The notes: generated by a model not told the origin, from the letters alone. DNA of 64,000 bases from an uncultured Candidatus Saccharibacteria bacterium (GCA_964567265.1 CAZMLK010000001.1:395723-459722); one strand, 5' to 3'. Shown: positions 8,990 to 51,968, counted from the stretch's first letter. Numbers and translations: made by a program.

Positions 8990-9448
8990 TTATAACCCGG
9001 GACAGTTTGCAGCCTTGTGATACCCTGCGCTTTCAGCGGCAGCACTTGAGCTGAACCAGATCTTATTCTCATCCTTGATTCGTTTCGCACCGCTGCAACT
9101 CTCAAGATAGTAGGCACTCCCGTTCTTAGAGGCGACGTACCTCCCTCCTCCGGTTCGGAGAGTAGTTGCGCCCTGCGGGAGGGAATCTTTCTTCTCAGCT
9201 ATTGCTGCTTCCGGAAGGCTCCGGACTACGGCCGCTTCCTGGCTTTTTTGGTAGATTTTGACTGGTTCTTTCGGAGGCTTCATGGAGAGTCGCCCGAGCC
9301 CAAAGGAGGCTAATCCCACCAATACGACTATCAGGGCTATGAAAAAATCCCCTGAGAGGGCCGATTTGGCCATATTCTTGCCTTTCTGGACCATTTCTTG
9401 TATAGTCATGGGACAAAAGTATTTGACCAATAGTATAGCTTTAAACAA
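8990..9448 (-). CDS. membrane-anchored protein with small C-terminal Cys-containing domain
   Basis: One TM helix ([17 protein letters not shown]). C-terminus [28 protein letters not shown]...AESAGY.KAANC is a recurrent small Y..C...F.S...A...GY...C domain. Start uncertain. Confidence 0.5.
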
Positions 9449-9453
9449 GACTT

Positions 9454-9726
9454 ATGGCACATCGTAAAGCAGGAGGCACCGCGAGAAACCTACGCGATTC
9501 AAACCCGAAATACCTCGGTGTGAAGCTGTATGCCGGCGAGACTGCCAAGGTCGGATCCGTCATCCTTCGTCAGCGAGGTACCCGCTATGAGCCGGGAGCA
9601 AACGTCGGTCTCGGCAAGGACCATACCCTGTTCGCCCTCAAGCCAGGCGTCGTCTCCTTCCGCACAAAGCGTAAGACACGCTTCAACGGCCAGGTGGTCC
9701 GAAAGCAGGTCGTGGACGTGAAATAA
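9454..9726 (+). CDS. rpmA: 50S ribosomal protein L27
   Basis: [24 protein letters not shown] ... ILRQRGT ... [14 protein letters not shown]. Confidence 0.95.
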
Positions 9727-9748
9727 TCCTCAAATTTGAACAAAAAAA

Positions 9749-9774
9749 CCGCAGGCTCTCGCCTGCGGTTTTTT
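9749..9774 (+). terminator. rho-independent terminator of rpmA
   Basis: CCGCAGGC-tctc-GCCTGCGG followed by TTTTTT. Confidence 0.85.
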
Positions 9775-9846
9775 GCATATGCTTATCAAAAGGAAACCCC
9801 GTCGCGGCATGGCCGCGATGGGGTCTTGAGACCTCCTAGGAGGTCT

Positions 9847-10179
9847 TTAATGGCTCACGGATCGATCAGGAGAACGTGGAGTGGTGTCGAGAAGGATGCT
9901 GCAGTATTCCTCCGAAGTGACATACCTCTCGAGCGTTGTTCCCGGTCGTAGTTTCTGGAGCACAGACAGATGAGCAACGACATCATTTGCCAGTGCGATA
10001 CGGGACTCGCTGTTGTCCGGACGAAGAAGCCTATAGGTCCTCCACTTCTGGATTACTGTCTTAAGCCCGCGTTCTGCTTTGATTGCAGGCATCTCGACGG
10101 GCGGTGAGGCTAGCCTCCGCTCGCAGATTCTACCGACGAGTGCAGGGATGACGAACAGCATGACCGAAATCCTTTTCAT
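9847..10179 (-). CDS. hypothetical protein with N-terminal signal-like segment
   Basis: MKRISVMLFVIPALVGRI hydrophobic N-terminus. Hairpins lie downstream of the stop. No recognised motif. Confidence 0.45.
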   Translation of the reverse strand: MKRISVMLFVIPALVGRICERRLASPPVEMPAIKAERGLKTVIQKWRTYRLLRPDNSESRIALANDVVAHLSVLQKLRPGTTLERYVTSEEYCSILLDTTPRSPDRSVSH

Positions 10180-20022: not shown

Positions 20023-22734
20023 TTACGCTTCCGTAGCCTTTCTGCCAAAAAAAAGCAATTTTGTCGTCTCGATCGTCGCAAGGTTGAAAAACCCGATGCC
20101 AGCAAGGATGAGCACATCCGAATGCGAGAGCGGCACGAGATGGAGGAGGTGCGAAAGCGCGGGGATATTGAGGGCGCCGAGGAGCGCAGCGAAGCTCGCG
20201 GCGAGCGCCAGGAGAAGGAATCTATTCGAGAATATATTGATACGCCAGAGTGGCTGGCTGAGGCTCTTCATCGAGAACGCGAAGAAGATGGAATCGAGCG
20301 AGAGCGATATGAACATGATGGTCCGGATCTCCTCCTCCGGCATGCCTGTGAGCACGAGATAGATGTAGAGCGCGACCAGGAAGCTGCCGGAAATGAGGCT
20401 CGCGAGGATGATGAGCTTTTTCAAAGCAGGCGTCACGAGCGCGTTCTTAGAACGGGATCGCGGCTTGCGGCGCATGATTCCCTTCTCAGCCGGCTCGAAT
20501 GCGAATGCGAAATTCATAAGCCCTCCTTCGATGATATTGGTCCAGAGGAGCTGGGTCGGCAGGATCGGCAGCGGCGCCGCGAGCACCAAGGATCCCGTAA
20601 TGAGGAAGATGCTGCTGAAATTCGTCGCCAGCATGTAGGCAAAGATCTTGCGGAGGTTGTCGACGATACGGCGCCCTTCTTCGATCGCCGCGACCATGAT
20701 CGAGAAGCTGTTATCGAGGAGGATGAGATCGGATGCCTCTTTCGCGACTTCCGTACCGCTCCCGACCGCGACGCCGATGTCGGCGCTCCGGAGCGCAGGC
20801 GCGTCGTTGATGCCGTCTCCCGTCATCGCGACCACCTCGCCGGCATTCTTGAGGATGCGCACGATGCGGAGTTTCTGTTCTGGCGTCACGCGCGCGAACA
20901 CCTGCGCTTCACGGAGCGCGCGGAGGAGCGCCTCATCATCCATCTCCTCGAGCTTGGTGCCGGTGTACGATGAGAATTCCCCCTCCGCGACGCCCGCGTC
21001 GCGCGCGATCGCGCGAGCGGTCTCCTCGTTGTCGCCCGTGAGCATGATCACCGTCGCCCCCGCGCCCTTCACGGTCTTGATCGCTTCCGGCACGTCCTTG
21101 CGGATCGGATCGTGGAACGCCAGGAGGCCGACGAACGTGCTCCCATTGGTCAGCTTGTGATGCTCCTCGTCATCCTTTTCCGGAATCTTGTGCCAGGACA
21201 CTTCCTTGTACGCGACCGCGATGAAGCGCATGCCTTCGCGGCTGAGCGAGAGCTGTACCTGCTCGAATTGCCCGCGATCGTCACCCGTCATCGGGACCGC
21301 CTTTCCCTCGCGGTACACGTATTCAGCCCGCTCGAGGAATGCCTCCGGCGCACCGGTCATGATGAGCCGGCGCTCCTTTCCTTTCTGCTCATTGAGCGAC
21401 GCGCCGAACCGCCTCGAAGATTCGAAATGGAGGAAGTCTACTCGCTTCTGCTCGGCATGGAGGCCAGGCTGGGTGATTCCCTCCTTGAGGCCCGCATGCA
21501 ATATCGCTTTCTCGATGGGCCGGCCGTGGATGATGAATTTCGCTTCCCCTTCCTTCGCCTCGATGCCTGGATTCTCGAACTCCTCGATGAACGCGTCAGA
21601 TCCGAGGACTGCCATTCGGAGAAGATCCTTTGCATCTTCTTCCCACGCTTCGCCCGGGGCATGCGCGCGTGATTCGAGCGTGTAGACGGATGCCAGATCC
21701 ATGCGGGCTTCAGTCAGCGTGCCGGTCTTGTCAGTAAGGATCACCGTCGTCGCGCCGAGCGTCTCTGCCGCGAGCATGTTCCTCACTAATCCGCCGCGGC
21801 GGAGGATCGCTTCCATGCCGATCGCGAGCACTGCCGTGACTGCAGCAGGAAGGCCCTCGGGCACGACGGCAACAGCAATCGCGATCGCGATGAAGAGCAT
21901 CTCGATGAGCGGCTCGCCGCGCAGCAGCCCGAGGATGAAGATGACGGCGATGAGCACGACGACCAGGGATACGAGCATCGAAGCGATATGGTGGAGATTT
22001 TCCTGGAGCGGCGTCCGGCGCGTATCCGCGGACCCGAGCTCGCGCGCAATCGCGCCGACTTCCGTCTGCATGCCGACCGCGACCGCGACACCGAGGCCGG
22101 AACCGCCGACCACGAGCGTATTCGCGTATGCCATGTTGAGGCGTTCGGCGAGCGGCAGAGTATTCTCAAGCACTGCCGGATCCTTGGAGACCGGCAGCCA
22201 TTCGCCCGAGAGCGAAGCTTCGTTGACGGAGAGCGTGTGCACTTCAATCAACCGTACATCAGCGGGCACCGTATATCCGGCTTCCAAAACAACGATATCC
22301 CCGACGACCACTTCTTCAGAAGGAATGGTGACCTTCTCGCCATCGCGAATGACGATGGCGCGTTTGATCTCGGATGAACTGAGGAGCTGGAAGGCGCGGC
22401 TCGCCCGTCCCTCCTGGAAGAGCCCGATGCCGACATTGAGGATGAGCGCCGCGAAGATGACCGCACTGTCGGAAGTCTCATGGAGAAGGAGCGTCGCGAA
22501 GCCGGCAACCAGGAGCACTGCCGCGAGCGGATTCTCGAGCTGGCGGAGCACGCGATGGCCAGCGGTATCGGTATTCGTCGAGGTAAGGACGTTCCTCCCG
22601 AACGCTTCACGGAGCGTGGCGACCTGTGCATCGCTCTGGCCGGTCTCCGGGCTCACCTTGAAACGCGACAGCAGCGCGTCAACCGGCTCCGCGTGAGCAG
22701 GCGCTCCTTCCAGTGCATCTGTGCCTTTCGACAT
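20023..22734 (-). CDS. cation-transporting P-type ATPase (P2/Ca2+-Mg2+ type)
   Basis: DKTGTLT, TGDN, MTGDGINDAPAL, and about 10 TM helices. 903 aa. Confidence 0.9.
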   Translation of the reverse strand: MSKGTDALEGAPAHAEPVDALLSRFKVSPETGQSDAQVATLREAFGRNVLTSTNTDTAGHRVLRQLENPLAAVLLVAGFATLLLHETSDSAVIFAALILNVGIGLFQEGRASRAFQLLSSSEIKRAIVIRDGEKVTIPSEEVVVGDIVVLEAGYTVPADVRLIEVHTLSVNEASLSGEWLPVSKDPAVLENTLPLAERLNMAYANTLVVGGSGLGVAVAVGMQTEVGAIARELGSADTRRTPLQENLHHIASMLVSLVVVLIAVIFILGLLRGEPLIEMLFIAIAIAVAVVPEGLPAAVTAVLAIGMEAILRRGGLVRNMLAAETLGATTVILTDKTGTLTEARMDLASVYTLESRAHAPGEAWEEDAKDLLRMAVLGSDAFIEEFENPGIEAKEGEAKFIIHGRPIEKAILHAGLKEGITQPGLHAEQKRVDFLHFESSRRFGASLNEQKGKERRLIMTGAPEAFLERAEYVYREGKAVPMTGDDRGQFEQVQLSLSREGMRFIAVAYKEVSWHKIPEKDDEEHHKLTNGSTFVGLLAFHDPIRKDVPEAIKTVKGAGATVIMLTGDNEETARAIARDAGVAEGEFSSYTGTKLEEMDDEALLRALREAQVFARVTPEQKLRIVRILKNAGEVVAMTGDGINDAPALRSADIGVAVGSGTEVAKEASDLILLDNSFSIMVAAIEEGRRIVDNLRKIFAYMLATNFSSIFLITGSLVLAAPLPILPTQLLWTNIIEGGLMNFAFAFEPAEKGIMRRKPRSRSKNALVTPALKKLIILASLISGSFLVALYIYLVLTGMPEEEIRTIMFISLSLDSIFFAFSMKSLSQPLWRINIFSNRFLLLALAASFAALLGALNIPALSHLLHLVPLSHSDVLILAGIGFFNLATIETTKLLFFGRKATEA

Positions 22735-23250: not shown

Positions 23251-23276
23251 GGAAGCGGGAGGTTCTAAAAGAAAAA

Positions 23277-23306
23277 GCCCCCGCGCCTTCGGCGCGGGGG
23301 CTTTTT
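23277..23306. terminator. bidirectional terminator
   Basis: AAAAA-GCCCCCGCGCC-ttc-GGCGCGGGGGC-TTTTT. Confidence 0.85.
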
Positions 23307-23324
23307 CTAATTCTCTTTCAAACG

Positions 23325-25730
23325 CTATGGAGTCGAAACTGCCCTGAGCATCGGCTCGATGCGGTCAGCAACCCGTGCATACCCGCTGGCATTCGGATGC
23401 ACCAAGTCGCTGCTCGTGAGGAACGGATTTCCCAGGACTCCTTTCAGGATATTCTCGACATACGCCGACTGCGTATCTCGTGCCACGTCCTTATACCGAT
23501 CATTGAGCGACGGGTTGAGGATGCCTCCGCCGAGACCGACCACGAGTACAACTGCTCCCTTCGCCTGGATGCGCTCCACAATGGTCTGCAGGTTCGAGAA
23601 TGTCTCAGCCCGTGAGACCGCGGGCACGCTGAGATTCGCGCCGATGCGGACAAGGATCAAGCGTATGCGTTCAGCAAAAGCCTTGTCGCCAATCGCGAGC
23701 GCTTCCTCATACATCCGGTGAAGCTCATCGTTCGCTCCGAGGAAGACAATGACGACTTTCGGATTCTTGGAAAGGACATCAGCGTCGAGGCGCGCGAGCG
23801 CCATCGAGGTATCGTTGCCGGACACGCCTGCATTCTGGATCGGCTTGCCGAGACGCTGCGAGAGCACGCTTACGTAGTCCTTTCCGGCAGGAGCACCGAC
23901 ACCGGAGGTCAGGCTGTCTCCGAGCGCGATAATATTCTGACCTTTTGATGGGTAGTTCTTGACCGGCCAGGGATTGCCTCCCGGATTCCCGCCGGTACCA
24001 CCCGTGGTTCCCCCGGTAGTACCGGTCGTTCCAGTAGTCCCTGTGGTGCCGGTCGTGCCTGTAGTTCCTGTAGTGCCCGTTGTCCCCGTGCTTCCGCCGC
24101 CGCCAACACGAATGCTGCCAGGACTCGCTCCAACTCGAGTGAACCCATCGTTGATGAATACGCGTGCCTCATAGATGCCATCAGCAAGTGAAGGAAAGGT
24201 CATCGATCCGGATGTTCCACCAGCTGGGATGTACTGCCATGCCGTGTACGAACGATCACCCTGCCCTGCTGCATAGATTCCCACCCAGTCTTTCGCATTG
24301 CGGCTCTGAGGTGCCTGCCAGTTCACGGTCACCGCGCCTCCAGACGGAACGGTTGCTGCTGCAAAGGCGACGGCATATCCGCCGGTACCGCCCGTCGTTC
24401 CTCCTGTGGTCCCTCCGGTCGTACCTGTGGTTCCCGTAGTACCGGTAGTTCCTGTCGTGCCTGTGGTTCCGGTAGTGCCCGTCGTTCCTGTGGTGCCAGT
24501 TGTCCCGCCCGTGGTGCCTCCCGTTCCTCCCATCGTAAATGCATTCGAGACCGCGACATGCGCACCCCCGCTGGTCACAAAATATCGTGCCTCATACACG
24601 CCCGGCTGGAAGCTTGTGAAATCAACGGCACCATCAGCAGATCCGATCGGAACATACTGCCACTTCCAATAGCCGCCATCGCTTCCAGAATTCGGCGTAT
24701 AGATGCCGATCCAGTCATGCGCTCCGACTGCAGGCGTGTGATAGGTCACATGCGCAACGCTGCCATTCACAGTAACTGAGAGCGAATATGAACCTCCGCC
24801 GCCGGTCGTTCCTCCTGTAGAGCCGCCCGTCGTACCTGTGGTTCCCGTAGTGCCCGTTGTCCCTGTCGTGCCAGTGGTCCCCGTCGTTCCAGTAGTACCA
24901 GTTGTGCCGGTTGTGCCCGTTCCGCCACCACCGCCAACACTGACAGAGCCAGGACTGGTCGCTGCACGCGTATATCCATTATTCAAATACAACCGCGCTT
25001 CATACTGGCCGTTCGCAAGTCCCGGAAAGCTGAGCGTTCCAGATGTCGCACCGCCGATGTACTGCCATGCCGTATACGAGCGATCTCCCTGGCCAGTCGC
25101 GTAAATGCCGACCCAATCTTGCGTACCGCGACTTGCGGGCGCCTGCCAGTTGACCACGACAGCACCTCCAGTCGGGACCGAAGCAGATGCGAACGAGACC
25201 GCATATCCTCCGGTACCGCCGGTGGTCCCGCCGGTAGTACCTCCCGTGGTCCCAGTTGTGCCGGTCGTTCCAGTCGTCCCCGTGGTACCGGTCGTGCCTG
25301 TTGTCCCAGATGTACCCGTCGTCCCAGTGGTTCCCGTAGTGCCTCCGGTTGTTCCCGTCCCTCCTCCGCCACCGTACGTGACCGAATTCGAGACTGCGAC
25401 ATGGCTATAGCCATTGGCGACAAGATACCGTGCTTCGTATGTGCCCGGATTGACGTTTAAGAAATCAATCGCTCCGTCTACCGCACCAGCCGGAACGTAC
25501 TGGTACAGGATGAATCCATGGTTGTCTGCTCCCACCGGAAAGAGTCCAATCCAATCCTGGTTGCCGGCCGTCGGCGCATGGTAGGTAACATGAATAATCC
25601 CGCCGGTGACAGTTGCATTCAACGTATAGCTTCCAACCTGCGCGTCAGCCCTTTCCACGGCTCCAAACCCAATGAGGGCGATCGCGGCTGAAAGAAGGAT
25701 TGTTGCCCTGATGGTGGTATGCATGGTCAT
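23325..25730 (-). CDS. secreted multidomain protein: 4 copies of a ~90-aa repeat (A-B-A-B) separated by Thr/Gly linkers, plus a C-terminal SGNH/GDSL hydrolase
   Basis: N-terminal signal-like ILLSAAIALIGFGAVERADA. The repeats carry DW[IV]G[IL][YF] and YEAR motifs. The C-terminal IIALGDSLTSG, SGND, FLGANDE and DLVHPN correspond to SGNH blocks I, II, III and V. Confidence 0.8.
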   Translation of the reverse strand: MTMHTTIRATILLSAAIALIGFGAVERADAQVGSYTLNATVTGGIIHVTYHAPTAGNQDWIGLFPVGADNHGFILYQYVPAGAVDGAIDFLNVNPGTYEARYLVANGYSHVAVSNSVTYGGGGGTGTTGGTTGTTGTTGTSGTTGTTGTTGTTGTTGTTGTTGGTTGGTTGGTGGYAVSFASASVPTGGAVVVNWQAPASRGTQDWVGIYATGQGDRSYTAWQYIGGATSGTLSFPGLANGQYEARLYLNNGYTRAATSPGSVSVGGGGGTGTTGTTGTTGTTGTTGTTGTTGTTGTTGTTGGSTGGTTGGGGSYSLSVTVNGSVAHVTYHTPAVGAHDWIGIYTPNSGSDGGYWKWQYVPIGSADGAVDFTSFQPGVYEARYFVTSGGAHVAVSNAFTMGGTGGTTGGTTGTTGTTGTTGTTGTTGTTGTTGTTGTTGGTTGGTTGGTGGYAVAFAAATVPSGGAVTVNWQAPQSRNAKDWVGIYAAGQGDRSYTAWQYIPAGGTSGSMTFPSLADGIYEARVFINDGFTRVGASPGSIRVGGGGSTGTTGTTGTTGTTGTTGTTGTTGTTGGTTGGTGGNPGGNPWPVKNYPSKGQNIIALGDSLTSGVGAPAGKDYVSVLSQRLGKPIQNAGVSGNDTSMALARLDADVLSKNPKVVIVFLGANDELHRMYEEALAIGDKAFAERIRLILVRIGANLSVPAVSRAETFSNLQTIVERIQAKGAVVLVVGLGGGILNPSLNDRYKDVARDTQSAYVENILKGVLGNPFLTSSDLVHPNASGYARVADRIEPMLRAVSTP
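23976..24104 (-). repeat. coding Thr/Gly (TTG)n linker 4, imperfect 9-bp periodic repeat
   Basis: Encodes GGGGSTGTTGTTGTTG... The antisense frame reads (VVP)n. Confidence 0.85.
24378..24530 (-). repeat. coding Thr/Gly (TTG)n linker 3
   Basis: Encodes GGTGGTTGGTTGTTGTTG...GGTTGGTGG. Confidence 0.85.
24792..24935 (-). repeat. coding Thr/Gly (TTG)n linker 2
   Basis: Encodes GGGGGTGTTGTTGTTG...GGSTGGTTGGGG. Confidence 0.85.
25206..25373 (-). repeat. coding Thr/Gly (TTG)n linker 1
   Basis: Encodes GGGGGTGTTGGTTGTTGTTGTSGTTG...GGTTGGTGG. Confidence 0.85.
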
Positions 25731-25862
25731 GATAGTGATGACTCGTATGATAACGGATTCTTTCTAAAGGGATTATGAAGACAGAAGTGGGTTACCCCGG
25801 CCGAGCTGCCTGATTTTTGCTCGGGCACACAATACAACGTTTTTGAGGGATTGCATAGGAAA

Positions 25863-25891
25863 AGAGGCCGCGCGAAGCGCGGCCTCTTTTT
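25863..25891. terminator. bidirectional terminator downstream of the beta-helix gene
   Basis: AGAGGCCGCGC-gaa-GCGCGGCCTCT flanked by A and T runs. Confidence 0.8.
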
Positions 25892-25911
25892 GCTACATCG
25901 CACCAATCCAA

Positions 25912-28848
25912 TTATCGCATCACTCCCCGCGTCAGCGTCCCAAAATAGCCAGTACCCGCAGAGAGTCCTGCTGGTTCGAGGATATCTGCGACATGCGCGT
26001 TCTGAAAGAGGATGAGGGCTGCCTTAGTAGCAGGTCCGAAGAAATCAGTCTCGAATCCTGGCGACCCTGCTCCTACAGCGGACACTGTAAATCCATGTAC
26101 ATTCAAGTACATCTGAAGCTGACGGACATCTTCCCCGCGAGATCTGACTCTGAGATTGCGCGGGAAAGTCACTGACGTCATGGCAGGCGTCGTTGTTGAT
26201 ACCGAAAGATTTCCAAACACTTCATTGAGTTTCGCCAGCGTCAGCGGGCCGACGACACCATAGCCGGTCGTGCTCGGTGTGCCCGTGGTGACGATACCGT
26301 ACTTCGCTTGGAATCGTCGTACTGCGGCTTCCGTCAGCGCACCATAGAATCCGTTGACAATGGCTTCCGGGTACAGGGCAGCGTCTGAGGCAAAGAGTTG
26401 TTGCAAGGTGCGGACGTCTGGGCCCTGCATGCCGGGGAAGAGCGCGTTCGTGAAGATTGGACTCCTGCCTGTCGACGGCATCAACGGGGCAGGTTGTTGA
26501 TTGGAAGTACCAGGAATGGTCACCGCAGCTGAACAGACTGAGAAGGCGTTGCAGTATTTCACATAGAGCGTGCTTGTAGTATCAGGCCATGGGAGCGAAC
26601 TGGTTGCATTCACGTAGGTTGCAGTAGCGAACGAAGGGTCCGTGGAAATGGCAATCTTCGTGATATCCGTTCCGAATGAGAATGTGAGGATCCGTCCTGA
26701 CGGGATTGGCGTCGTTGACGTGGCAGCAAATCCTCCAGATGGACCCGTAGGGACTGGTGCACTTCCACCTCCTCCGCCCGAGGGTGGCAGGACGATATTC
26801 ACCGTTCGCGTTGACACCGCACTGTTCCCTGCCGTATCGGTTGCCGTGTAGGTAATGCGGTATGTTCCGACCGTGCCCACCGTCACTGTGTCCCCACCTG
26901 TGGTGACCGACACTGTTCCATCGACATCATCGGTCGCCGATGCGCCCGGGTCCGCAAAGCCCTGGCCGATGGTTTGAGTGATGGAGGCAGCTCCCGAAAG
27001 CGTAATGGTCGGCGCGACCGAGTCGGTATATTCGTACGCACCGATATCGCAGACACCCTGACGACTGACACCATTTTTGTCTGTCGTTGGGCACAGAGAA
27101 TCCGTGCCCGCATTGATGGCTGGGGAAGATGCGAGGAGGCGGTAATCACCCCCTGACACATCAGCCAATACGGGATCACTAGTCAAAGAATGCGACCCTA
27201 GAGAAAATCCCGACCCAGAGACTGACGCCGTTGCCGTATGTGCAATGAGGCTATAGTCTTCACTCACACTCGTCGCACCGGTTGTTTTCGAGATACCCGT
27301 CGCAAATCCATATATCAAATTGTTACGCAACGTAACGTTCCCTGTTGATTGGAGCGACATCGCTACGCCTGACTGCGACGGATTGATGAGGGTGTTGTTA
27401 TAGAACGAGAGCGCGGCCGCATCAAGCAACGTTACCAGTGCATTTGTTCCTGCGACTGTGGTGTATCCGAATACGTTTCCATACGCGATAATTGACGAGT
27501 TTTCAATATTTGTGACTGCACTTTTTTTATTGCCCCAAGCATACGAATTGGTAAGCCTGCCCCCTGACGTCTCGTGCCATGAGAATCCGTCACCATCGGA
27601 ACCAGATCCATCGACTCCATTGTTTGTAGATGTAGCATGATCGATGTTGATTGTGGGTCCATTATGAAATCCAAATCCATCATTCGTGTTGCTATCTGCG
27701 GTTGAATTTAAAATCGTTACGGTACCGCCAGTACCCGCGACAGCAACCCCGTTGGAACCAGTGACCGTGCCATTACTGTTGAATGTCGAACCGGACAATG
27801 TAAGGGTGTCACTTGATCCTCCCATGGTGACATTGATGCCAGCAAGACCGTTTGAACCCACGGTGAGATTTGAAAATCTTGACCCAGTTGACCCTGCCAG
27901 CATCAATATGCCGTCAGACGTATTGTTGGAGACCGTCGTCGTAGCAATGATTGCATTTGTTGGCTTCGAATCGAATCGGATTCCACGAGCAGTATTCCCA
28001 GTAACGGTCGAGTTTTTAATCGAAATTCCACTTGCGGTATTCAATATATATATTCCGTTCGAGCCGCAGCCCTGAATGGTAACTCCATCAATGACTGCTG
28101 TGGTGACATTATTCAAGATGAGGCAATCTCCTGAACCGCCTGTGATCGTAGAGGAGGTAATGGTGATATTTGAGCCAGCAGCCACAGAACTTCCAAACTT
28201 CATGCCGCTTGTTGAGGCGGTGATCGTGAGGTTTGAAAAAGTATCTCCTTGCGACTTGGTACCATTCAAGTTTATGCCGGTTGTAAAACCACTGACCGTA
28301 ATGTTGTCATATGTGCTCGCGGTACTGGTAGCATTGGTACTGATGACGATGGCCTGCGTTGTTGTGCCGCTAATTGAGAGATGGTTGAAATTAAGTCCGG
28401 TAAACGTACCTGAAAATACAAAGATGCCTGATTCGGACGGACTTCGTAAGACAAGATTTTGAATCGTCAGATACGATGCGCTGTTGCGAATATCGAATAT
28501 CCTATTCTGGCTTCCGGCATTCAGAATGGGATTGGCACCAGTGCCGTATGCATCAAAAACAATTGGATTTCCAGATGTACCCGAATCGTCAAACAGCGTT
28601 ATCTTTATATTTGAGAACGTTTCACCTTTCTTGAATAAAATCTGGTCTCCTGCCACGAAAGTGCGCGCGTTGATTGGTGTAGCCGACTGCCACGGCGTTC
28701 CACTGCTCGTACCATTATTCGAATCGCTGCCAAGAGTGGCGTCCACATAGTATGTCGCCGCGCTTGCCAGCGACGGCACTGCAGTCACAGCAAACAACGC
28801 TATTGCTGCAAATACAAACGCGATGTTTTTTGGGTAATTTTGAGGCAT
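25912..28848 (-). CDS. secreted right-handed parallel beta-helix protein with Ig-like (DUF5011-type) domain and two C-terminal peptidoglycan-binding (PG_binding_1-like) repeats
   Basis: Signal-like N-terminus, then TYYVDATLGSDSNNGTS..PW. Many N.(T/S)I..(N/S) beta-helix rungs. GVCDIGAYEY (choice-of-anchor-Q-like). DVDGTVSVT...GTYRITYTATDTAGN (Ig-like). GPDVRTLQQLF...FYGALTEAAVRRFQ and GEDVRQLQMYL...FGPATKAALILFQ (PG-binding). Confidence 0.85.
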   Translation of the reverse strand: MPQNYPKNIAFVFAAIALFAVTAVPSLASAATYYVDATLGSDSNNGTSSGTPWQSATPINARTFVAGDQILFKKGETFSNIKITLFDDSGTSGNPIVFDAYGTGANPILNAGSQNRIFDIRNSASYLTIQNLVLRSPSESGIFVFSGTFTGLNFNHLSISGTTTQAIVISTNATSTASTYDNITVSGFTTGINLNGTKSQGDTFSNLTITASTSGMKFGSSVAAGSNITITSSTITGGSGDCLILNNVTTAVIDGVTIQGCGSNGIYILNTASGISIKNSTVTGNTARGIRFDSKPTNAIIATTTVSNNTSDGILMLAGSTGSRFSNLTVGSNGLAGINVTMGGSSDTLTLSGSTFNSNGTVTGSNGVAVAGTGGTVTILNSTADSNTNDGFGFHNGPTINIDHATSTNNGVDGSGSDGDGFSWHETSGGRLTNSYAWGNKKSAVTNIENSSIIAYGNVFGYTTVAGTNALVTLLDAAALSFYNNTLINPSQSGVAMSLQSTGNVTLRNNLIYGFATGISKTTGATSVSEDYSLIAHTATASVSGSGFSLGSHSLTSDPVLADVSGGDYRLLASSPAINAGTDSLCPTTDKNGVSRQGVCDIGAYEYTDSVAPTITLSGAASITQTIGQGFADPGASATDDVDGTVSVTTGGDTVTVGTVGTYRITYTATDTAGNSAVSTRTVNIVLPPSGGGGGSAPVPTGPSGGFAATSTTPIPSGRILTFSFGTDITKIAISTDPSFATATYVNATSSLPWPDTTSTLYVKYCNAFSVCSAAVTIPGTSNQQPAPLMPSTGRSPIFTNALFPGMQGPDVRTLQQLFASDAALYPEAIVNGFYGALTEAAVRRFQAKYGIVTTGTPSTTGYGVVGPLTLAKLNEVFGNLSVSTTTPAMTSVTFPRNLRVRSRGEDVRQLQMYLNVHGFTVSAVGAGSPGFETDFFGPATKAALILFQNAHVADILEPAGLSAGTGYFGTLTRGVMR

Positions 28849-28982
28849 GTAACAAATTCAATGAGTAAGCGTTTTGTATTCTCGAAGACGGATTTGAAAC
28901 GTAGTCATTGCCACTGATTCACTATACCAGCTGCATTACGACAGAGGTATTCCGAATGGGGATTACGGCGGAAAAAACGGAA

Positions 28983-29013
28983 AAAGGCGGCCGCGCTTCG
29001 CGCGGCCGCCTTT
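28983..29013 (-). terminator. rho-independent terminator of the 29023 gene
   Basis: Minus strand: AAAGGCGGCCGCG-cgaa-GCGCGGCCGCCTTT followed by TTCCGTTTTTT. Confidence 0.8.
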
Positions 29014-29022
29014 CGCCTCCAC

Positions 29023-30603
29023 CTACATCGTTATCTGCACCGCATTCCCCGCCTGATCGTATCCATTCGCCTTGAAGTAACGGATCTCGTAGCTGCCGGG
29101 AGTGACATTCTGGAATGTGTAGGTGCCCGATGGGCCGGTCGCATACGACCATGCAAGATACGAGCGGTTGCCTGCCCCGGTCGCATAGAGCCCGATCCAG
29201 TCGGTCGTCGTGAACGCAGTACTTGGGCCCACCCAGCTCGCGATGATTGTATTTCCAGATCTCGATGCGGAGAGTGAATATCCGGCTGCGGCAGAAAGAT
29301 CAGCTCGTGCGACTGCCGCCTTCGCCTGTACGGTGATTTCCGGAGTAACTGCAACTGATGTGTATTTATTATTCTTCAGATACCGGATCTCGAAGGTGCC
29401 GGTGCGGTCGAGCGTGAATGTCATGTCGCCGCTCGCAGCATCCCCGGTGTATTTCCAGGTCCCGTAGCTCCGGTTCGACGCGCCCTTCTCATAGATCGCG
29501 ATCCAGTCCTGCGTATTCGACGAGCCTCCTGGCGTCTGCCAGTGCACGGTCACGGTATCACTAACTCGCGGGGTCTGAGAGGAAATCGTGAGCGAGTATC
29601 CGGCTGCCGCTGCAGCGGAGCCCAGTGTATAGGTCGCTGAGGTCGCACGCCGGGTGTAGCCGTTGTTCTCGAAGGTACGCGCCTCATATGCGCCGGGCTC
29701 GAGCGAGTCTGTATTGAAACTGAGCGTTCCCGAATTGCCGGATGGAAGATACTGCCACAGAAGATAGGAGGAATCAGCAGCGCCGACCGGATAGAGCCCG
29801 ACCCAATCCCGCGAACTGCGGCCGGTCGGCGCCTCGAACCGCACCGAGAGCGTATTCCCGGAAATGCCATTGATGGCGAGTGCGTAGTTCCCTACGGGTG
29901 CAGCCGCAGCGCTTCCGGTCGTACCGGTGGTTCCGTCTTCTGTTCCCGTCCCGCCACCACCAGTCACGATCTCGCGCCACGGACCGCTGGGCACATTGCC
30001 CGCGTCCACGAACCGCCAAGACACCAGCATCTGGTCGCCGCCGTTCAAGCAGTCGCGCATGGCGGGAGAGAGATCGATGCCGATTGATTGGCGCGGTCCC
30101 GCGCTTCCGAATACGTACGCAATATCATCCTCACCGTATGGTCCGACATCTTCCCACTGGCCGTAGCAGGTCGCACCGTTCGAGGTGACCGCCACCCAAT
30201 GATTCTTGAGCTGCGAAACGCTCTTGCTCGCGCCGGATTGATACCACGGGATCTGGCTCGCGTTCGATTTCTGGGATCCGTTATTGCCGATGTCGTTATA
30301 CGGAAGCGCGATATAGAACGGATTCTCCTTCGGAGTGAACGCGCACGGGCGGTAGCCGCATCGATTGTCGGGATCGTCTTCCCCGCCGTAATGAGTTGCC
30401 CAGAGCTCGTCCCATGCGCTCGGGACGTTCGAGATGAAGCCGTTGTCTGAGGTCGCGCCTTCGCCTACCCAGAAGACAGTCGCGTTGACCGTTTTCGGGT
30501 TCGTTTCGGTCGCGGTGATGGCTGCTGCCGGGTATGGATAGGCTGCTCCGAGTAGAAGGAGGAATACGGCTAGCGATGCGGCTCTAATGCCCTTCCGATT
30601 CAT
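29023..30603 (-). CDS. secreted protein: N-terminal conserved module (possibly DPBB/barwin-like) plus 3 copies of the same ~90-aa repeat found in 23325..25730
   Basis: Signal-like LAVFLLLLGAAYPYPAAA. N-terminal module has VFWVGEGATSDN, ENPFYIALPYND and GIDLSPAMRD. The repeats carry DWVGLY...YEARTF, DWIAIY...FEIRYL and DWIGLY...YEIRYF. Confidence 0.75.
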   Translation of the reverse strand: MNRKGIRAASLAVFLLLLGAAYPYPAAAITATETNPKTVNATVFWVGEGATSDNGFISNVPSAWDELWATHYGGEDDPDNRCGYRPCAFTPKENPFYIALPYNDIGNNGSQKSNASQIPWYQSGASKSVSQLKNHWVAVTSNGATCYGQWEDVGPYGEDDIAYVFGSAGPRQSIGIDLSPAMRDCLNGGDQMLVSWRFVDAGNVPSGPWREIVTGGGGTGTEDGTTGTTGSAAAAPVGNYALAINGISGNTLSVRFEAPTGRSSRDWVGLYPVGAADSSYLLWQYLPSGNSGTLSFNTDSLEPGAYEARTFENNGYTRRATSATYTLGSAAAAAGYSLTISSQTPRVSDTVTVHWQTPGGSSNTQDWIAIYEKGASNRSYGTWKYTGDAASGDMTFTLDRTGTFEIRYLKNNKYTSVAVTPEITVQAKAAVARADLSAAAGYSLSASRSGNTIIASWVGPSTAFTTTDWIGLYATGAGNRSYLAWSYATGPSGTYTFQNVTPGSYEIRYFKANGYDQAGNAVQITM

Positions 30604-30618: not shown

Positions 30619-30674
30619 CAATTTTTCGGGGGTGGGGGCAAGGGAGAAATACAAAATCACAGTACCTTGAAGCA

Positions 30675-31538
30675 TCACTGATTTCCAGCTTCAAGCTGTG
30701 GATCGAGATCGTCCATGATGTACCGCATGAATTGTTTTCCCAGTTCAGTGAGAACCTGTTGATCATCGTTGAATGGAGACTTGAGCGTCTTAGCTTGGGG
30801 ACCGGCTTTCTTTTTTGCGACTCTTCGTCGCCACTGCCCATCCGCATCCGATTCTCGAGGTTGGCGCATAACGTCAGCCATTTGGAGTTCGTGGAAAAGG
30901 AACTTGAACAAATCGGCCTTCGCCGAGTCATCCCTTGGTATCTCACCGAATATCTCCGTTGCGATATCGTAAGAAGATATACCCGGATTCTGGTACACCA
31001 GCCTGAGTATCTGGAAATGAAGCTCGTGGAATCGCTCCATAAATTCCACAAAGAGGCGGACCACATCGTCATCCACAACGCGCATGCCAGCGGCGTTAGT
31101 GATGAGTTTTCGCAAACTCTCCCTTTTCTCGGTGGTATCGGCGCCGTCCCAGACGCGGAAAGTCTTACGCACAAGATTCAGATATTCTGTCGACTCTATT
31201 CGCTCTTCCGTCTGAATTCCAAATATCTCCAAACGCTCAAAGACACGACGCATATCCGCTAGTAACTCGCGAAGCTTCAACTCGTGCTCTTGTACCCACA
31301 AGAAAAGGAGCTTGTTCGTTATGCCTTGCTCCTTCTCGGCTGATAGAGTGGCAGCAGCACTTAAGACGCTTCCAACCCACGGAATACCACTCAACGCCGC
31401 CATTGCAACGCGTCCGTATTTCTTCCAATTTCCACCCGTTAGTTGCTCAAGAATAGCCCGCTCTTTTTCATTCAATACAACTGCTTCGATGCGTTCCGGG
31501 AGTTTGTGGTCTGCCATGGGAATCAGTCTACTCCTCAT
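30675..31538 (-). CDS. hypothetical protein (orphan, AT-richer than its neighbours)
   Basis: 287-aa ORF, alternative start at 31517 (MADHKLPERI). No recognised motif. Visibly lower GC than the flanking genes. Confidence 0.55.
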   Translation of the reverse strand: MRSRLIPMADHKLPERIEAVVLNEKERAILEQLTGGNWKKYGRVAMAALSGIPWVGSVLSAAATLSAEKEQGITNKLLFLWVQEHELKLRELLADMRRVFERLEIFGIQTEERIESTEYLNLVRKTFRVWDGADTTEKRESLRKLITNAAGMRVVDDDVVRLFVEFMERFHELHFQILRLVYQNPGISSYDIATEIFGEIPRDDSAKADLFKFLFHELQMADVMRQPRESDADGQWRRRVAKKKAGPQAKTLKSPFNDDQQVLTELGKQFMRYIMDDLDPQLEAGNQ

Positions 31539-31634
31539 ATATTTATCAGCAAATTTCTCGTAACATGTAACGAAATATGATTTTGTGCCCCCGTCTAGCT
31601 TCAGTGTGGTCGTCGGTCCTTACAGGACCAGTAT

Positions 31635-31726
31635 CCCGATTGGATTTTTTAGTGCGGCCATAAATGGCCGACAAAAAATGCTCAATCGGGCTTCGACTCC
31701 CGGACGAAGTCTCCCCCGGAGACTTC
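31635..31726. other. structured intergenic element: long imperfect hairpin, inverted tRNA T-arm fragment and 9-bp hairpin
   Basis: CCCGATTG (31635) pairs with CAATCGGG (31683), enclosing T6/A6 and CGGCCA/TGGCCG stems. CGGGCTTCGACTCCCGG (31687-31703) is the reverse complement of the tRNA-Glu T-arm with 1 insertion. GAAGTCTCC-ccc-GGAGACTTC at 31706-31726. Confidence 0.5.
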
Positions 31727-31758
31727 TTAGGGTCCCAACTTTCGCTACGCTCAATTTG

Positions 31759-31830
31759 TGACCCTACCGGGAGTCGAACCCGGCTTTAGAGCTTGAGAAG
31801 CTCTCGTCCTAACCGATAGACGATAGGGCC
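31759..31830 (-). tRNA. tRNA-Glu (anticodon CUC)
   Basis: Hand-folded 72-nt cloverleaf: acceptor GGCCCTA/TAGGGTC, D-arm GTCT-ATCGGTTA-GGAC, anticodon arm AGAGC-TTCTCAA-GCTCT, 4-nt variable loop, T-arm CCGGG-TTCGACT-CCCGG. CCA is not encoded. Confidence 0.9.
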
Positions 31831-32721: not shown

Positions 32722-32751
32722 GGTTGAAAAATACCCGGGCGTGAGCCCGGG
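32722..32751 (-). terminator. rho-independent terminator of the 32775 gene
   Basis: Minus strand: CCCGGGC-tcac-GCCCGGG followed by TATTTTTC. Confidence 0.75.
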
Positions 32752-32774
32752 CATTGGTCGGATGAAAATTCTCT

Positions 32775-33185
32775 TCAGGCAGGCACGACGCCCGCGATTT
32801 CGAGGAAGCGCTCACGAAGCCACGCAGGCGGTCGTGGTGTTTCCTCGCTTCCATCTGCTGCAATGATCACGTGCTGGCAGTTTGTGTCCGACATACCGAG
32901 CACATGTTCCCCAAGCGAACGCGCATACGCATCCATATATTGTCTCACGTGTCTTGCAGCGTCGCGTCGCCTCCGCGTACTGAGCGAGAGCGCCTTCCGC
33001 CAGAGATGCGAGGGCTTGAACCAGTCGCGTGTTTCAACATACAGGCAGACAACCGAGATCGGGCAAATGCCGTCTCGGTAAGACGGAGGCACGAATCGTA
33101 GGTGCGTACCATGTATGAGAACGGGGGTATAGCTTCCGTTGCAGATTGCTGTTTTAAGCGTTGAAAGGAATGTTTCGATATCCAC
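32775..33185 (-). CDS. hypothetical protein (136 aa, GTG start)
   Basis: Own TTGACT-N17-TATAAA promoter, GGGGAG RBS and terminator. No recognised motif. Confidence 0.5.
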   Translation of the reverse strand: MDIETFLSTLKTAICNGSYTPVLIHGTHLRFVPPSYRDGICPISVVCLYVETRDWFKPSHLWRKALSLSTRRRRDAARHVRQYMDAYARSLGEHVLGMSDTNCQHVIIAADGSEETPRPPAWLRERFLEIAGVVPA

Positions 33186-33220
33186 GAGTCTTCACTCCCC
33201 TAGTACTATTGACTGGAAAT

Positions 33221-33249
33221 TTTATACATTACGGAAACATTAAAGTCAA
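33221..33249 (-). promoter_or_regulatory. sigma70-like promoter of the 32775 gene
   Basis: Minus strand: TTGACT-17 nt-TATAAA, immediately after the murF stop. Confidence 0.55.
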
Positions 33250-33253
33250 GTTC

Positions 33254-34546
33254 CTACCTCCGGAGCCACTCTGCGTCCTGGCGGGCGAGAAGCTCTTCCT
33301 TGATCTGCGGATTCGCCATGAACTGCTCGATACAGCGCTCCATGCGGATGGACTGCGAGCCTTTGACGAAAATGACATCCCCTTCCTCCATCATGGACTC
33401 GATCATCTGTCCTGCCTCTTCCGCATCCCTGCATTCGAAAATAGTCTTCTTCTTCATGCCGGCTGCGTGCGCGCTCTTGGCTGAGAAATGCGCCCGCACA
33501 CCGACGGTGAGGAGTATATCCGCGACTTCCGCGAGCTGCTTCCCCGCGATCTTATGCGCTTCGATCGAGTACGAGCCGAGCTCGAGCATGTCGCCGAAGG
33601 CGACGATAGTGCGCCGGTGCGTGGTGAGGCTCTTCAGCGTGGCGACCGCTTCTTCGACCGCAACCGGTGAGGCATTGTAGGAATCATCAACGATCATCGT
33701 CCCCTTCTCTCCCTTCAAAATGCGCATACGGCCCGGCGACGGGATATGGTTCTGGAACGCGTCGCGGAGTTCAGAAAGCGTGACGCCTTCGAGCGTTCCC
33801 ATCGCGGTCGCGGCAAGAAGCGGGTATGCATGCTGGGCGCCAAGAACGCCCGGCAGCGTGAAGTTCGCCGTTTCTCCCCCCGCGTTCACGATGAGCGTGA
33901 TGCCGGAGGTGAGGACATCATTGGTGAGCACGTTCTGGAGCCCGCGACCTTGTATTTCGGAGCCTTCGTGGAATCCATAGGTCACCATCCTTCCTTTCCA
34001 TCCTGCTGCACGCTTCAGGATGTTGTGATCGTCCTTGTTGATGATGAGCGTGCCGTTCTCGGTGAGCGCATGCACGATCTTGAAATCCTCGTCGTTGACG
34101 GCGTCTGGCGAATCGAAATATTCCACATGAACCGGCAGGTCAGGAAAGCGCGTGAGGATGACGGCATCCACAGAGAGCCACTTTGCGAGTGCTTCGATAT
34201 CGCCCGGATGATCCGAACCGACTTCGAGCACCAGCCATTCCGGATACTGCTCCTTCACGAAAATAAGCACGAGCCCCGCGACAATGTTCTTCGTCCACAG
34301 GAACGGATTGTTCCATGCATTCGGCCGCCCGAGGATGGTGAGCGGCACGCCGATCTCGCTGTTGAAGCTCTTCTGGCTTTTCCGCACGAAGTATTTCTCG
34401 GAAAGCGCGACATACACGGCGTCCTTGGTGGACGTCTTTCCGACACTGCCAGAAACCGCGACGATGCGCGGTTTGTATTTCTTAAGGATCAGCCTGGCTT
34501 CGAAGGTCAGTATTGCAACCAGGATGCTGCGAAGAATGTGTTTCAT
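33254..34546 (-). CDS. murF: UDP-N-acetylmuramoyl-tripeptide--D-alanyl-D-alanine ligase
   Basis: Mur ligase P-loop VAVSGSVGKTSTKD and central/C-terminal Mur ligase domains (DDSYNASP). Sits in the division/cell-wall cluster. Confidence 0.9.
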   Translation of the reverse strand: MKHILRSILVAILTFEARLILKKYKPRIVAVSGSVGKTSTKDAVYVALSEKYFVRKSQKSFNSEIGVPLTILGRPNAWNNPFLWTKNIVAGLVLIFVKEQYPEWLVLEVGSDHPGDIEALAKWLSVDAVILTRFPDLPVHVEYFDSPDAVNDEDFKIVHALTENGTLIINKDDHNILKRAAGWKGRMVTYGFHEGSEIQGRGLQNVLTNDVLTSGITLIVNAGGETANFTLPGVLGAQHAYPLLAATAMGTLEGVTLSELRDAFQNHIPSPGRMRILKGEKGTMIVDDSYNASPVAVEEAVATLKSLTTHRRTIVAFGDMLELGSYSIEAHKIAGKQLAEVADILLTVGVRAHFSAKSAHAAGMKKKTIFECRDAEEAGQMIESMMEEGDVIFVKGSQSIRMERCIEQFMANPQIKEELLARQDAEWLRR

Positions 34547-51938: not shown

Positions 51939-51968
51939 ACCCCGCACATCCATGCGGGGTTCTTTCTT
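51939..51968 (+). terminator. rho-independent terminator
   Basis: ACCCCGCA-catcca-TGCGGGGT followed by TCTTTCTTAT. Confidence 0.75.

Follow-up and report, generated by a model that had tools for sequence, protein, structure and literature searches.

Three consecutive genes for putatively secreted modular proteins with SKICH-like tandem repeats and a double-psi beta-barrel head in a Candidatus Saccharibacteria genome

A 64,000-nucleotide stretch of the genome of an uncultured Candidatus Saccharibacteria bacterium (GCA_964567265.1, CAZMLK010000001.1:395723-459722; hereafter the window) carries three consecutive genes for modular proteins of 801, 978 and 526 amino acids, termed here p801, p978 and p526. 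A tandem repeat of about 88 residues is shared by p801, where it is joined to an SGNH esterase, and p526, where it is joined to a double-psi beta-barrel (DPBB) domain; p978 is a beta-helix protein. An initial annotation, drawn from the DNA alone, saw in the trio what looked like a cell-wall-directed toolkit and could not assign the shared repeat to a named family. The data presented here place the repeat with the SKICH-type beta-sandwiches and make it moderately probable that the three genes are separately transcribed and code for secreted surface or extracellular proteins, in which the SKICH-like repeat serves as a stalk or adhesion scaffold bearing different heads.

Gene layout, terminators and secretion signals

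An open reading frame listing of the window places the three genes one after another and co-oriented on the minus strand, exactly where the initial annotation had put them. The genes, their signal peptides and their terminators are as follows.

23325-25730, minus strand: p801 gene, an 801-amino-acid open reading frame with a predicted signal peptide, four SKICH-like repeats in the order A-B-A-B and a C-terminal SGNH esterase
25912-28848, minus strand: p978 gene, a 978-amino-acid open reading frame with no SKICH-like repeat
29023-30603, minus strand: p526 gene, a 526-amino-acid open reading frame with a predicted signal peptide, a DPBB domain and three SKICH-like repeats
30520-30603, minus strand: putative Sec-type signal peptide of p526, residues 1-28, MNRKGIRAASLAVFLLLLGAAYPYPAAA, read from the sequence
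28759-28848, minus strand: putative signal peptide of p978, by inspection
25641-25730, minus strand: putative signal peptide of p801, by inspection
28983-29013, minus strand: intrinsic terminator 3' of p526, with a 14-bp perfect stem, a 3-nucleotide loop and a T-run
25860-25890, minus strand: intrinsic terminator 3' of p978, with a 14-bp perfect stem, a C(UUCG)G-type loop and UUUU
23270-23308, both strands: bidirectional terminator hairpin 3' of p801, with an 18-bp perfect stem, a 3-nucleotide loop and a T-run; a convergent YqeY gene lies on its far side

Judged by eye, all three N-termini have the n-h-c layout of Sec signal peptides, with a basic n-region, a hydrophobic core of at least 12 residues and an AxA-type site; the putative cleavage sites are VERADA/QV in p801, PSLASA/AT in p978 and YPAAA/IT in p526. 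On this reading of the sequence the three proteins all look secreted, in agreement with the signal-like N-termini that had been described for them. The GC-rich hairpins that had been reported behind the genes are equally present: each gene is followed by a perfect GC-rich inverted repeat with a 3-nucleotide loop and then by a T-run. The perfect-stem terminators in both intergenic gaps are evidence against a co-transcribed unit. The three hairpins have a common design, a GC-rich stem of 14 to 18 bp ending in GCGC and a 3-nucleotide TTC/GAA loop, and A-runs and T-runs flank all three on both sides, so that all of them could act bidirectionally.

The repeat and its SKICH-type relatives

The seven repeat copies and the linkers between the p801 modules lie at the following positions.

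25371-25640, minus strand: repeat 1 (type A), p801 residues 31-120
24933-25202, minus strand: repeat 2 (type B), p801 residues 177-266
24531-24800, minus strand: repeat 3 (type A), p801 residues 311-400, 52% identical to repeat 1
24105-24374, minus strand: repeat 4 (type B), p801 residues 453-542, 69% identical to repeat 2
29623-29892, minus strand: repeat 5, p526 residues 238-327, the copy used for modelling
29323-29592, minus strand: repeat 6, p526 residues 338-427
29026-29286, minus strand: repeat 7, p526 residues 440-526, reaching the C-terminus
24012-25337, minus strand: Gly/Thr-rich inter-module linkers of p801, as tandem arrays of 9/18/27 nucleotides at 24012-24095, 24414-24497, 24825-24921 and 25212-25337

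The motif DW[IV][GA][IL][YF] occurs exactly seven times, with four occurrences in p801, the other three in p526 and none in p978. The seven units can be aligned over about 88 residues, and P, DW, Y, G, F, G and E.R do not vary in the alignment. The count of seven copies with a common ordered signature in the initial annotation is thereby upheld. Pairwise identity among the copies ranges from 28 to 69%; the identities within the two A copies and within the two B copies of p801, set against about 30% for A/B pairs, confirm the A-B-A-B order that had been proposed for this protein. The repeat regions of p801 and p526 match each other in BLASTP at E = 4e-33, and a repeat profile run against all six-frame open reading frames of the 64-kb window found no gene beyond these two. 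The exact p801 sequence is absent from a collection of 15 billion proteins that does contain p978 and p526 from the same genome; together with the tandem-array structure of the linkers, this is a hint of variable linker length or of differences in assembly.

The initial annotation could give the repeat no family and noted a resemblance to SKICH-type beta-sandwiches. The first of these statements does not hold, and the second is borne out by both sequence and structure. When whole proteins are searched, the Pfam SKICH model (PF17751) reaches 37.7 bits for p801 and 39.8 bits for p526, above its gathering score of 23.4, and the precomputed annotations of relatives already bear PF17751 or PF16562. 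A profile built from 38 repeat copies (alignment A2, extended with copies taken from homologues) matches the SKICH chains of NDP52 at E = 6e-4 to 1e-3, HECW2 (HECW2-N) at 0.038 and TAX1BP1 at 0.042; the alignment to NDP52 runs across the DWIGIF motif, and HMMER sets the repeat motif opposite KDWIGIF of NDP52. AlphaFold2 on A2 gives a seven-stranded beta-sandwich with a mean predicted local distance difference test score of 97.3. In a Foldseek search of the PDB with this model, ranks 1 to 8 are all SKICH structures (NDP52, TAX1BP1) at template modelling scores of 0.63-0.75, and HECW2-N takes rank 10. The search with a repeat hidden Markov model (HMM) and the structure prediction with Foldseek, both of which had been suggested at the outset, thus point to the SKICH group.

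The likeness to SKICH (PF17751; NDP52/CALCOCO2, TAX1BP1, SKIP/PIPP) and to HECW_N (PF16562) consists in the seven-stranded Fn3-like beta-sandwich and the DWIG[IL][FY] strand motif, which SKICH conserves as (K/R)DWIG[IL]F and all seven copies carry as DW[IV][GA][IL][YF]; identity to SKICH structures is about 15%. The setting differs. Eukaryotic SKICH is one cytosolic adaptor domain of about 105-120 residues that binds NAP1/SINTBAD/FIP200 or, in SKIP/PIPP, targets membranes, whereas the units described here are bacterial, about 88 residues long and arranged in tandem arrays of three to four (up to 13 in relatives), which stand behind a putative Sec signal peptide and would be extracytoplasmic. 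A secreted, tandem, bacterial context is incompatible with the eukaryotic function, and the repeat is therefore regarded as a member of a homologous or analogous fold family and not as a functional SKICH. A third relative is fn3_PAP (PF17808; PDB 3zk4), which gives weak matches in p801 and is likewise an accessory beta-sandwich joined to a hydrolase; in the plant PPD1-type enzyme it occurs as a single copy on a metallophosphatase, whereas the present units form multi-copy bacterial arrays with an SGNH or DPBB head. Passages of PMC4062093 report that the Fn3-like N-terminal domain of a plant purple acid phosphatase aids DNA selectivity and binding.

Two other sets of matches were set aside. The matches of the A2 profile to titin (E = 1e-11) are sums of weak Fn3 matches, each domain with E of at least 0.065, and would show only that the repeat is Fn3-like. 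The echoes of single copies in Pfam to CarboxypepD_reg, SdrD_B, SpaA, Y_Y_Y and LisH are generic beta-sandwich noise.

The repeat belongs to a large family. A word-indexed search with the seven-copy profile gave nothing, an artefact of index sensitivity, as plain HMMER finds many proteins. An exhaustive HMMER census of 1.84 billion representatives of 50%-identity clusters yielded 9,026 representatives at E <= 1e-3, of which 4,955 reach 1e-10 or lower and 1,320 reach 1e-30 or lower. The best 150 of the 9,026 matches have 4 to 13 repeat copies each in proteins of 358 to 2,188 residues. Most members inspected begin with a signal peptide or lipobox, and the few named ones inspected are called 'hypothetical', with one 'VWA domain-containing'. 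Among 53 representatives, 29 match SKICH (best 7e-26), 23 match HECW_N (best 3e-40) and eight match fn3_PAP (down to 1.7e-16). Their fusion partners include Peptidase_S8, PPC, GEVED, MG2, Big_13, AA9, RHS, RCC1 and SGNH, the proteases, subtilases among them, being the commonest. Throughout the family the D-W, W.Y, G...F and G.YE.R positions are conserved, and in the A2 alignment and AlphaFold2 model they lie in or beside predicted strands. Within the library searched, no paper deals with prokaryotic SKICH or SKICH-like domains. In EukProt, a 612-residue protein (P0091) combines a CUE domain with three units that the bacterial repeat profile recognises at a full-sequence E of 1e-30; it could tie the bacterial family to eukaryotic SKICH, or be contamination.

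The best-supported assignment of the repeat is thus to a bacterial, extracytoplasmic branch of the Fn3-like sandwiches that include SKICH, HECW-N and fn3_PAP, the last being the N-terminal domain of PPD1-type enzymes. As for its role, we infer a structural stalk or adhesion scaffold with no dedicated ligand pocket, because the conserved positions lie in strands, the arrays are long, secretion signals accompany them and the heads are diverse and unrelated.

Several points weigh against this interpretation. No lone repeat attains the Pfam SKICH cut-off, single copies giving E = 0.002 to 1; the Pfam SKICH matches span only about 30 of the 103 model positions, and the whole-protein score adds up partial matches that lie around the DWIG strand; and the putative signal peptides of p801, p978 and p526 are by-eye judgements. 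Moreover, p526 and p801 are without any other recognisable wall anchor, and homologues of the DPBB domain bear SLH or PG_binding_1 at the place that the repeats take in p526. A specific binding role for the repeat, as opposed to that of a passive spacer, is therefore quite possible.

The heads of p526 and p801 and the beta-helix of p978

Beyond the repeats, the domains of the three proteins are these.

29959-30495, minus strand: DPBB domain of p526, residues ~37-215, with the motifs aTvFWvGE, NPFYiALPYND, YgQWEDVGP and GiDLSPA
23358-23933, minus strand: SGNH/GDSL hydrolase domain of p801, residues 600-791, with four catalytic blocks, TesA/lysophospholipase L1-like
~27148-28758, minus strand: right-handed beta-helix of p978 (Pfam Beta_helix)
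27028-27147, minus strand: choice-of-anchor Q of p978 (domain match)
26794-27006, minus strand: Ig-like domain PF16403 (Bact_surface_Ig-like) of p978 (domain match)
Within 25915-26451, minus strand: two PG_binding_1 domains of p978 (Pfam)

Within the trio, only the DPBB domain of p526 is truly without annotation, and it belongs to a widespread family. The initial annotation had described an N-terminal VFWVGE/NPFYIALPYND module followed by three repeats, and both motifs and all three copies are indeed present. The head has no sequence match in Pfam, NCBIfam or the PDB, where no chain is found at E <= 10, and the DPBB_1 HMM (PF03330) detects nothing in p526 and one of 36 homologues, at E = 9e-4. 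When modelled (residues 30-218), the head nevertheless adopts a double-psi beta-barrel fold. Its structural matches are PA4485 (8.9), Streptomyces papain inhibitor (8.7), kiwellin (8.4), expansins (8.2, 8.1, 7.9 and 7.6), loosenin (7.3), the GH45 enzyme Cel45A (7.1) and cerato-platanin (7.0). Between 82 and 100 of the 189 residues superpose, and about half of the domain is therefore family-specific, as an insertion. An alignment of 36 DPBB-domain sequences (A3) has 26 invariant columns, among them T13, F15, G18, E19, D123, G125, P126, D148, S150 and P151; E19, D123 and D148 are numbered in the modelled segment and correspond to E48, D152 and D177 of full-length p526.

With RlpA, expansin (EXLX1), loosenin and the barwin-like GH45 domains the p526 head shares the first-loop motif T-x-[FY]-W-x-G, and in its second half D-x-GP and [IL]D[LV]SPA line up with NDRGP and ISLS of RlpA. 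It differs from RlpA and expansin in its length of about 180 residues, in having neither the expansin domain 2 (CBM63) nor the RlpA SPOR domain, and in its occurrence in peptidoglycan-free archaea. An hhalign comparison of the DPBB profile with E. coli RlpA falls short of significance (E = 0.095, probability 0.6%); it pairs WEDVGPYGEDD with INDRGPYGNDR and IDLSPAMRDCL with ISLSRAAADRL. D123 (in QWEDVGP) would then stand, by this non-significant alignment, at a place consistent with that of the psi-loop Asp in the NDRGP of RlpA, a residue that is presumably catalytic in P. aeruginosa RlpA; a literature search returned nothing relevant on GH114 with double-psi barrels or on RlpA D157N.

Most matches in a homologue search with p526 are the DPBB domain alone, C-terminal in secreted 'hypothetical' proteins of about 300 residues; the orthologue of p526 (P0001) is 92% identical. 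A scan of one genome per species found at least 597 DPBB loci, and the genome that holds the window is not among the matches listed. The hosts are bacteria (Gracilibacteria, Saccharibacteria, Moraniibacteriota, Paceibacterota, Alphaproteobacteria, Campylobacterales, Verrucomicrobia, Planctomycetota and Actinomycetota) and archaea (Thaumarchaeota/Nitrosopumilales and, within DPANN, Pacearchaeota). Its fusion partners are GH114 in Sulfurovum and in other lineages, CE4 deacetylase domains (Polysacc_deac_1/DUF2334) in Thaumarchaeota, SLH in Gracilibacteria, and also PG_binding_1 and DUF4214 (fusion examples are L015:2614-4041, L047:9047-10582, L052, L005:9362-10582, P0025, P0023 and P0007); fusion to the SKICH-like repeat was seen in this lineage only. 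Thaumarchaeota and Pacearchaeota have no peptidoglycan. The presence of the domain in these archaea and its fusions to exopolysaccharide enzymes therefore suggest a role on surface glycans that is not specific to peptidoglycan, and the p526 head may be a glycan-binding, glycan-loosening or glycan-cleaving module of the RlpA/expansin/GH45 superfamily.

The C-terminal SGNH/GDSL hydrolase that had been recognised in p801 is well supported. Lipase_GDSL_2 matches residues 602-786 at E = 1.5e-22 over the full model (positions 1-178), and the four blocks GDSLTSG, GVSGND, GANDE and DLVHPN are all present, with a Ser-Asp-His triad. The nearest structures are a 'lysophospholipase L1-like esterase' (9otv, 1.9e-19) and TesA (4jgg, 6.6e-12), followed by further enzymes of TesA type; NCBIfam TesA gives a partial match at E = 1.4e-9, and acetyl-xylan esterases match only at E of at least 3.6e-4 over about 50 residues. 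The best matches are thus of the TesA/lysophospholipase L1 type and not of the type of any carbohydrate or peptidoglycan O-acetylesterase (Ape/CE), so that the earlier reading of the enzyme as directed at peptidoglycan or carbohydrate finds no support. Nor is the domain a plain TesA: it lies far under the TesA equivalog cut-off (38 against 270 bits), carries about 30 inserted residues behind block III and is mounted on a 540-residue repeat stalk. Members of the bacterial candidate phyla radiation (CPR) are described, in passages of PMC7242380, as having no membrane-lipid synthesis and as enriched in lysolipids. If that account applies here, the TesA-like character of the domain makes a lipid-directed role at least as plausible as wall de-O-acetylation, and the p801 head may be a broad esterase or lysophospholipase.

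For p978, the beta-helix, the DUF5011-like Ig domain and the two PG_binding_1-like repeats of the initial annotation were all matched, PF16403 being what we take to be the former DUF5011. The resemblance to a GH136 lacto-N-biosidase N-terminus is confined to residues 26-113. Through its two PG_binding_1 domains, p978 is the only member of the trio with a direct link to peptidoglycan.

Neighbourhood, alternative explanations and significance

The order 526-978-801 is kept in three contigs of close relatives (L001-L003). These are about 88-90% identical to the window in DNA and collinear with it, and the conserved order is therefore not independent evidence of a functional link. No p978-like, SGNH or repeat gene lies within 10 kb of the DPBB gene at any of 80 genomic loci. 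Over the same distance, 80 metagenomic p978-like loci are all free of DPBB, repeat, SGNH and PG_binding partners, these metagenome matches being partial relatives around the choice-of-anchor Q region that hold no synteny information. The co-occurrence in related genomes that the initial annotation had proposed to check is seen in the close relatives and is absent at the 160 more distant loci. The trio does not combine freedom from internal terminators with synteny across divergent relatives, as an operon would.

In a further relative (L085, whose DnaB is 77% identical) a p801 orthologue with three repeats and an SGNH domain 68% identical to that of p801 lies beside YqeY/RmuC as in the window; the contig stops 270 nucleotides upstream of it. 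Another repeat-SGNH protein (P0002, with six repeats; L004:721-5467) has as its neighbours a gene for a VanY D,D-carboxypeptidase and a 337-residue gene that bears the repeat as well, and this is a second instance of adjacent genes with a common repeat module, in a context that differs from that of the window.

It is unlikely that the three genes form a coordinated wall-directed toolkit, and the idea of coordination is weak. In such a toolkit p801 would supply an esterase for peptidoglycan or polysaccharide, p978 a beta-helix that acts on polysaccharide and p526 a wall cutter like RlpA, the repeat would bind the wall, and an episymbiont would direct the whole at the wall of its host. The PG_binding_1 domains of p978 would fit it, as would the RlpA/expansin fold of the p526 head with its hhalign-paired motifs, the SLH or PG_binding_1 domains that replace the repeats in DPBB homologues, the gene order of the sampled close relatives and the CPR affiliation of the organism. 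The trio also lies 2.6 kb from a MraZ-MraW-PBP-MurF cluster, and a Gracilibacteria DPBB gene lies 3 kb from murF. Against it, a strong terminator closes each gene, the order is kept in relatives that are about 88-90% identical in DNA and so give no independent evidence, and no partners were found at the 80 + 80 loci. The SGNH domain is TesA-like, the RlpA match is not significant, the DPBB domain occurs in peptidoglycan-free archaea and is fused to CE4 and GH114 exopolysaccharide enzymes, and the repeat family is joined mostly to proteases and other non-wall heads.

It is distinctly unlikely that the repeat is a carbohydrate-binding module (CBM) for exopolysaccharide or S-layer glycan, with p526 as a processor of exopolysaccharide, not peptidoglycan, on the cell's own or a neighbour's matrix. 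The same GH114 fusions (Sulfurovum and other lineages) and CE4/DUF2334 fusions (Thaumarchaeota) of the barrel speak for such an explanation, together with AA9, CHB_HEX_C_1, pullulanase X25 or PL4 domain II in some repeat-family proteins and weak Pfam echoes of the repeat to the AMPK1_CBM and MalQ_N beta-sandwiches. It is countered by the lack of any significant CBM family match to the repeat, by conserved residues that occupy strand and core positions instead of a loop or face cluster, and by the predominance of proteases among the fusion partners. An origin from a phage or mobile element, which the nearby tRNA-Glu and strain-variable cassette might suggest, was rejected because the trio is collinear with a relative and unremarkable in composition.

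The surroundings of the trio differ between relatives. Between p526 and the tRNA-Glu at 31758-31830, positions 30645-31754 hold a 287-residue open reading frame (30675-31538) with no Pfam match; in the ~89%-identical L001 the counterpart is unrelated DNA (9040-9959, with a 160-residue open reading frame), which marks a strain-variable cassette beside the tRNA. A further segment of about 535 nucleotides (32731-33265), with a 136-residue open reading frame (32775-33185) also lacking a Pfam match, is missing from the otherwise collinear L001. A 903-residue P-type cation ATPase (20023-22734), which separates RmuC from YqeY in the window, is not found in the syntenic region of L085, where a Pur_DNA_glyco gene adjoins the p801 orthologue instead. 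About 3 kb upstream of its DPBB gene the window has a murF homologue (33254-34546), as has the Gracilibacteria locus (L005:5193-6416); none of the other 79 loci shows this pattern. In E. coli, rlpA likewise stands beside mrdAB/dacA.

The proteins of the window are found in NCBI on a contig of 621,860 bp. The best named relatives of the DnaB encoded in the window, at 65-69% identity, are from Candidatus Paceibacterota/Pacebacteria, and the window also encodes a dcw cluster, a class-I LysRS and a VirD4-like coupling protein. Judged from these genes, a CPR origin of the window is supported; an episymbiotic lifestyle is assumed from membership in the group. The coupling protein is a 936-residue open reading frame at 51967-54777 with VirD4/TraG/TrwB-type domains, so that machinery related to type IV secretion is present; the type IV secretion system of Patescibacteria is treated in parts of PMC12102498.

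Under the stalk or scaffold reading, the tandem repeats, linked in p801 by Gly/Thr-rich segments, would keep a functional head at a distance from the cell and may also adhere to a surface polymer. For a CPR cell auxotrophic for lipids, the TesA-type esterase of p801 could process lipids of a host or of the environment, or acylated surface polymers, and the barrel of p526 could bind or cleave a glycan. p978, an unrelated beta-helix protein, would be held on peptidoglycan non-covalently through its two PG_binding_1 domains. A more far-reaching proposal is doubtful and is offered tentatively: the barrel would be an undescribed catalytic or wall-loosening family, with E19, D123 and D148, that acts on a surface glycan (an exopolysaccharide of GalN/GalNAc type or a wall polymer) and has been transferred across CPR, DPANN, Thaumarchaeota, Verrucomicrobia, Campylobacterales and others, here mounted on a SKICH-like stalk to reach a host, and the bacterial repeat family would be the prokaryotic source of SKICH and HECW-N.

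Nothing in the locus is categorically new, and as no long-standing open question is touched, its value is incremental. The repeat is a bacterial, extracellular, tandem form of the SKICH/HECW_N/fn3_PAP sandwich, most likely a stalk or adhesion scaffold, and the most interesting by-product of the analysis is the unannotated, very widespread DPBB family. CPR/Patescibacteria depend on other cells, and the surface proteins by which they make contact and capture nutrients are little known; the locus offers three secreted candidates. It also draws attention to two large families that are poorly named or unnamed, the extracellular SKICH/HECW-N-like repeat, with about 9,000 clusters at 50% identity that are currently labelled only by weak matches to eukaryotic models, and the RlpA/expansin-like barrel, found in at least 597 species-level genomes. 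Dedicated models for both families would better annotate many 'hypothetical' secreted proteins, and the barrel is a reasonable target in the search for new glycan-active activity.

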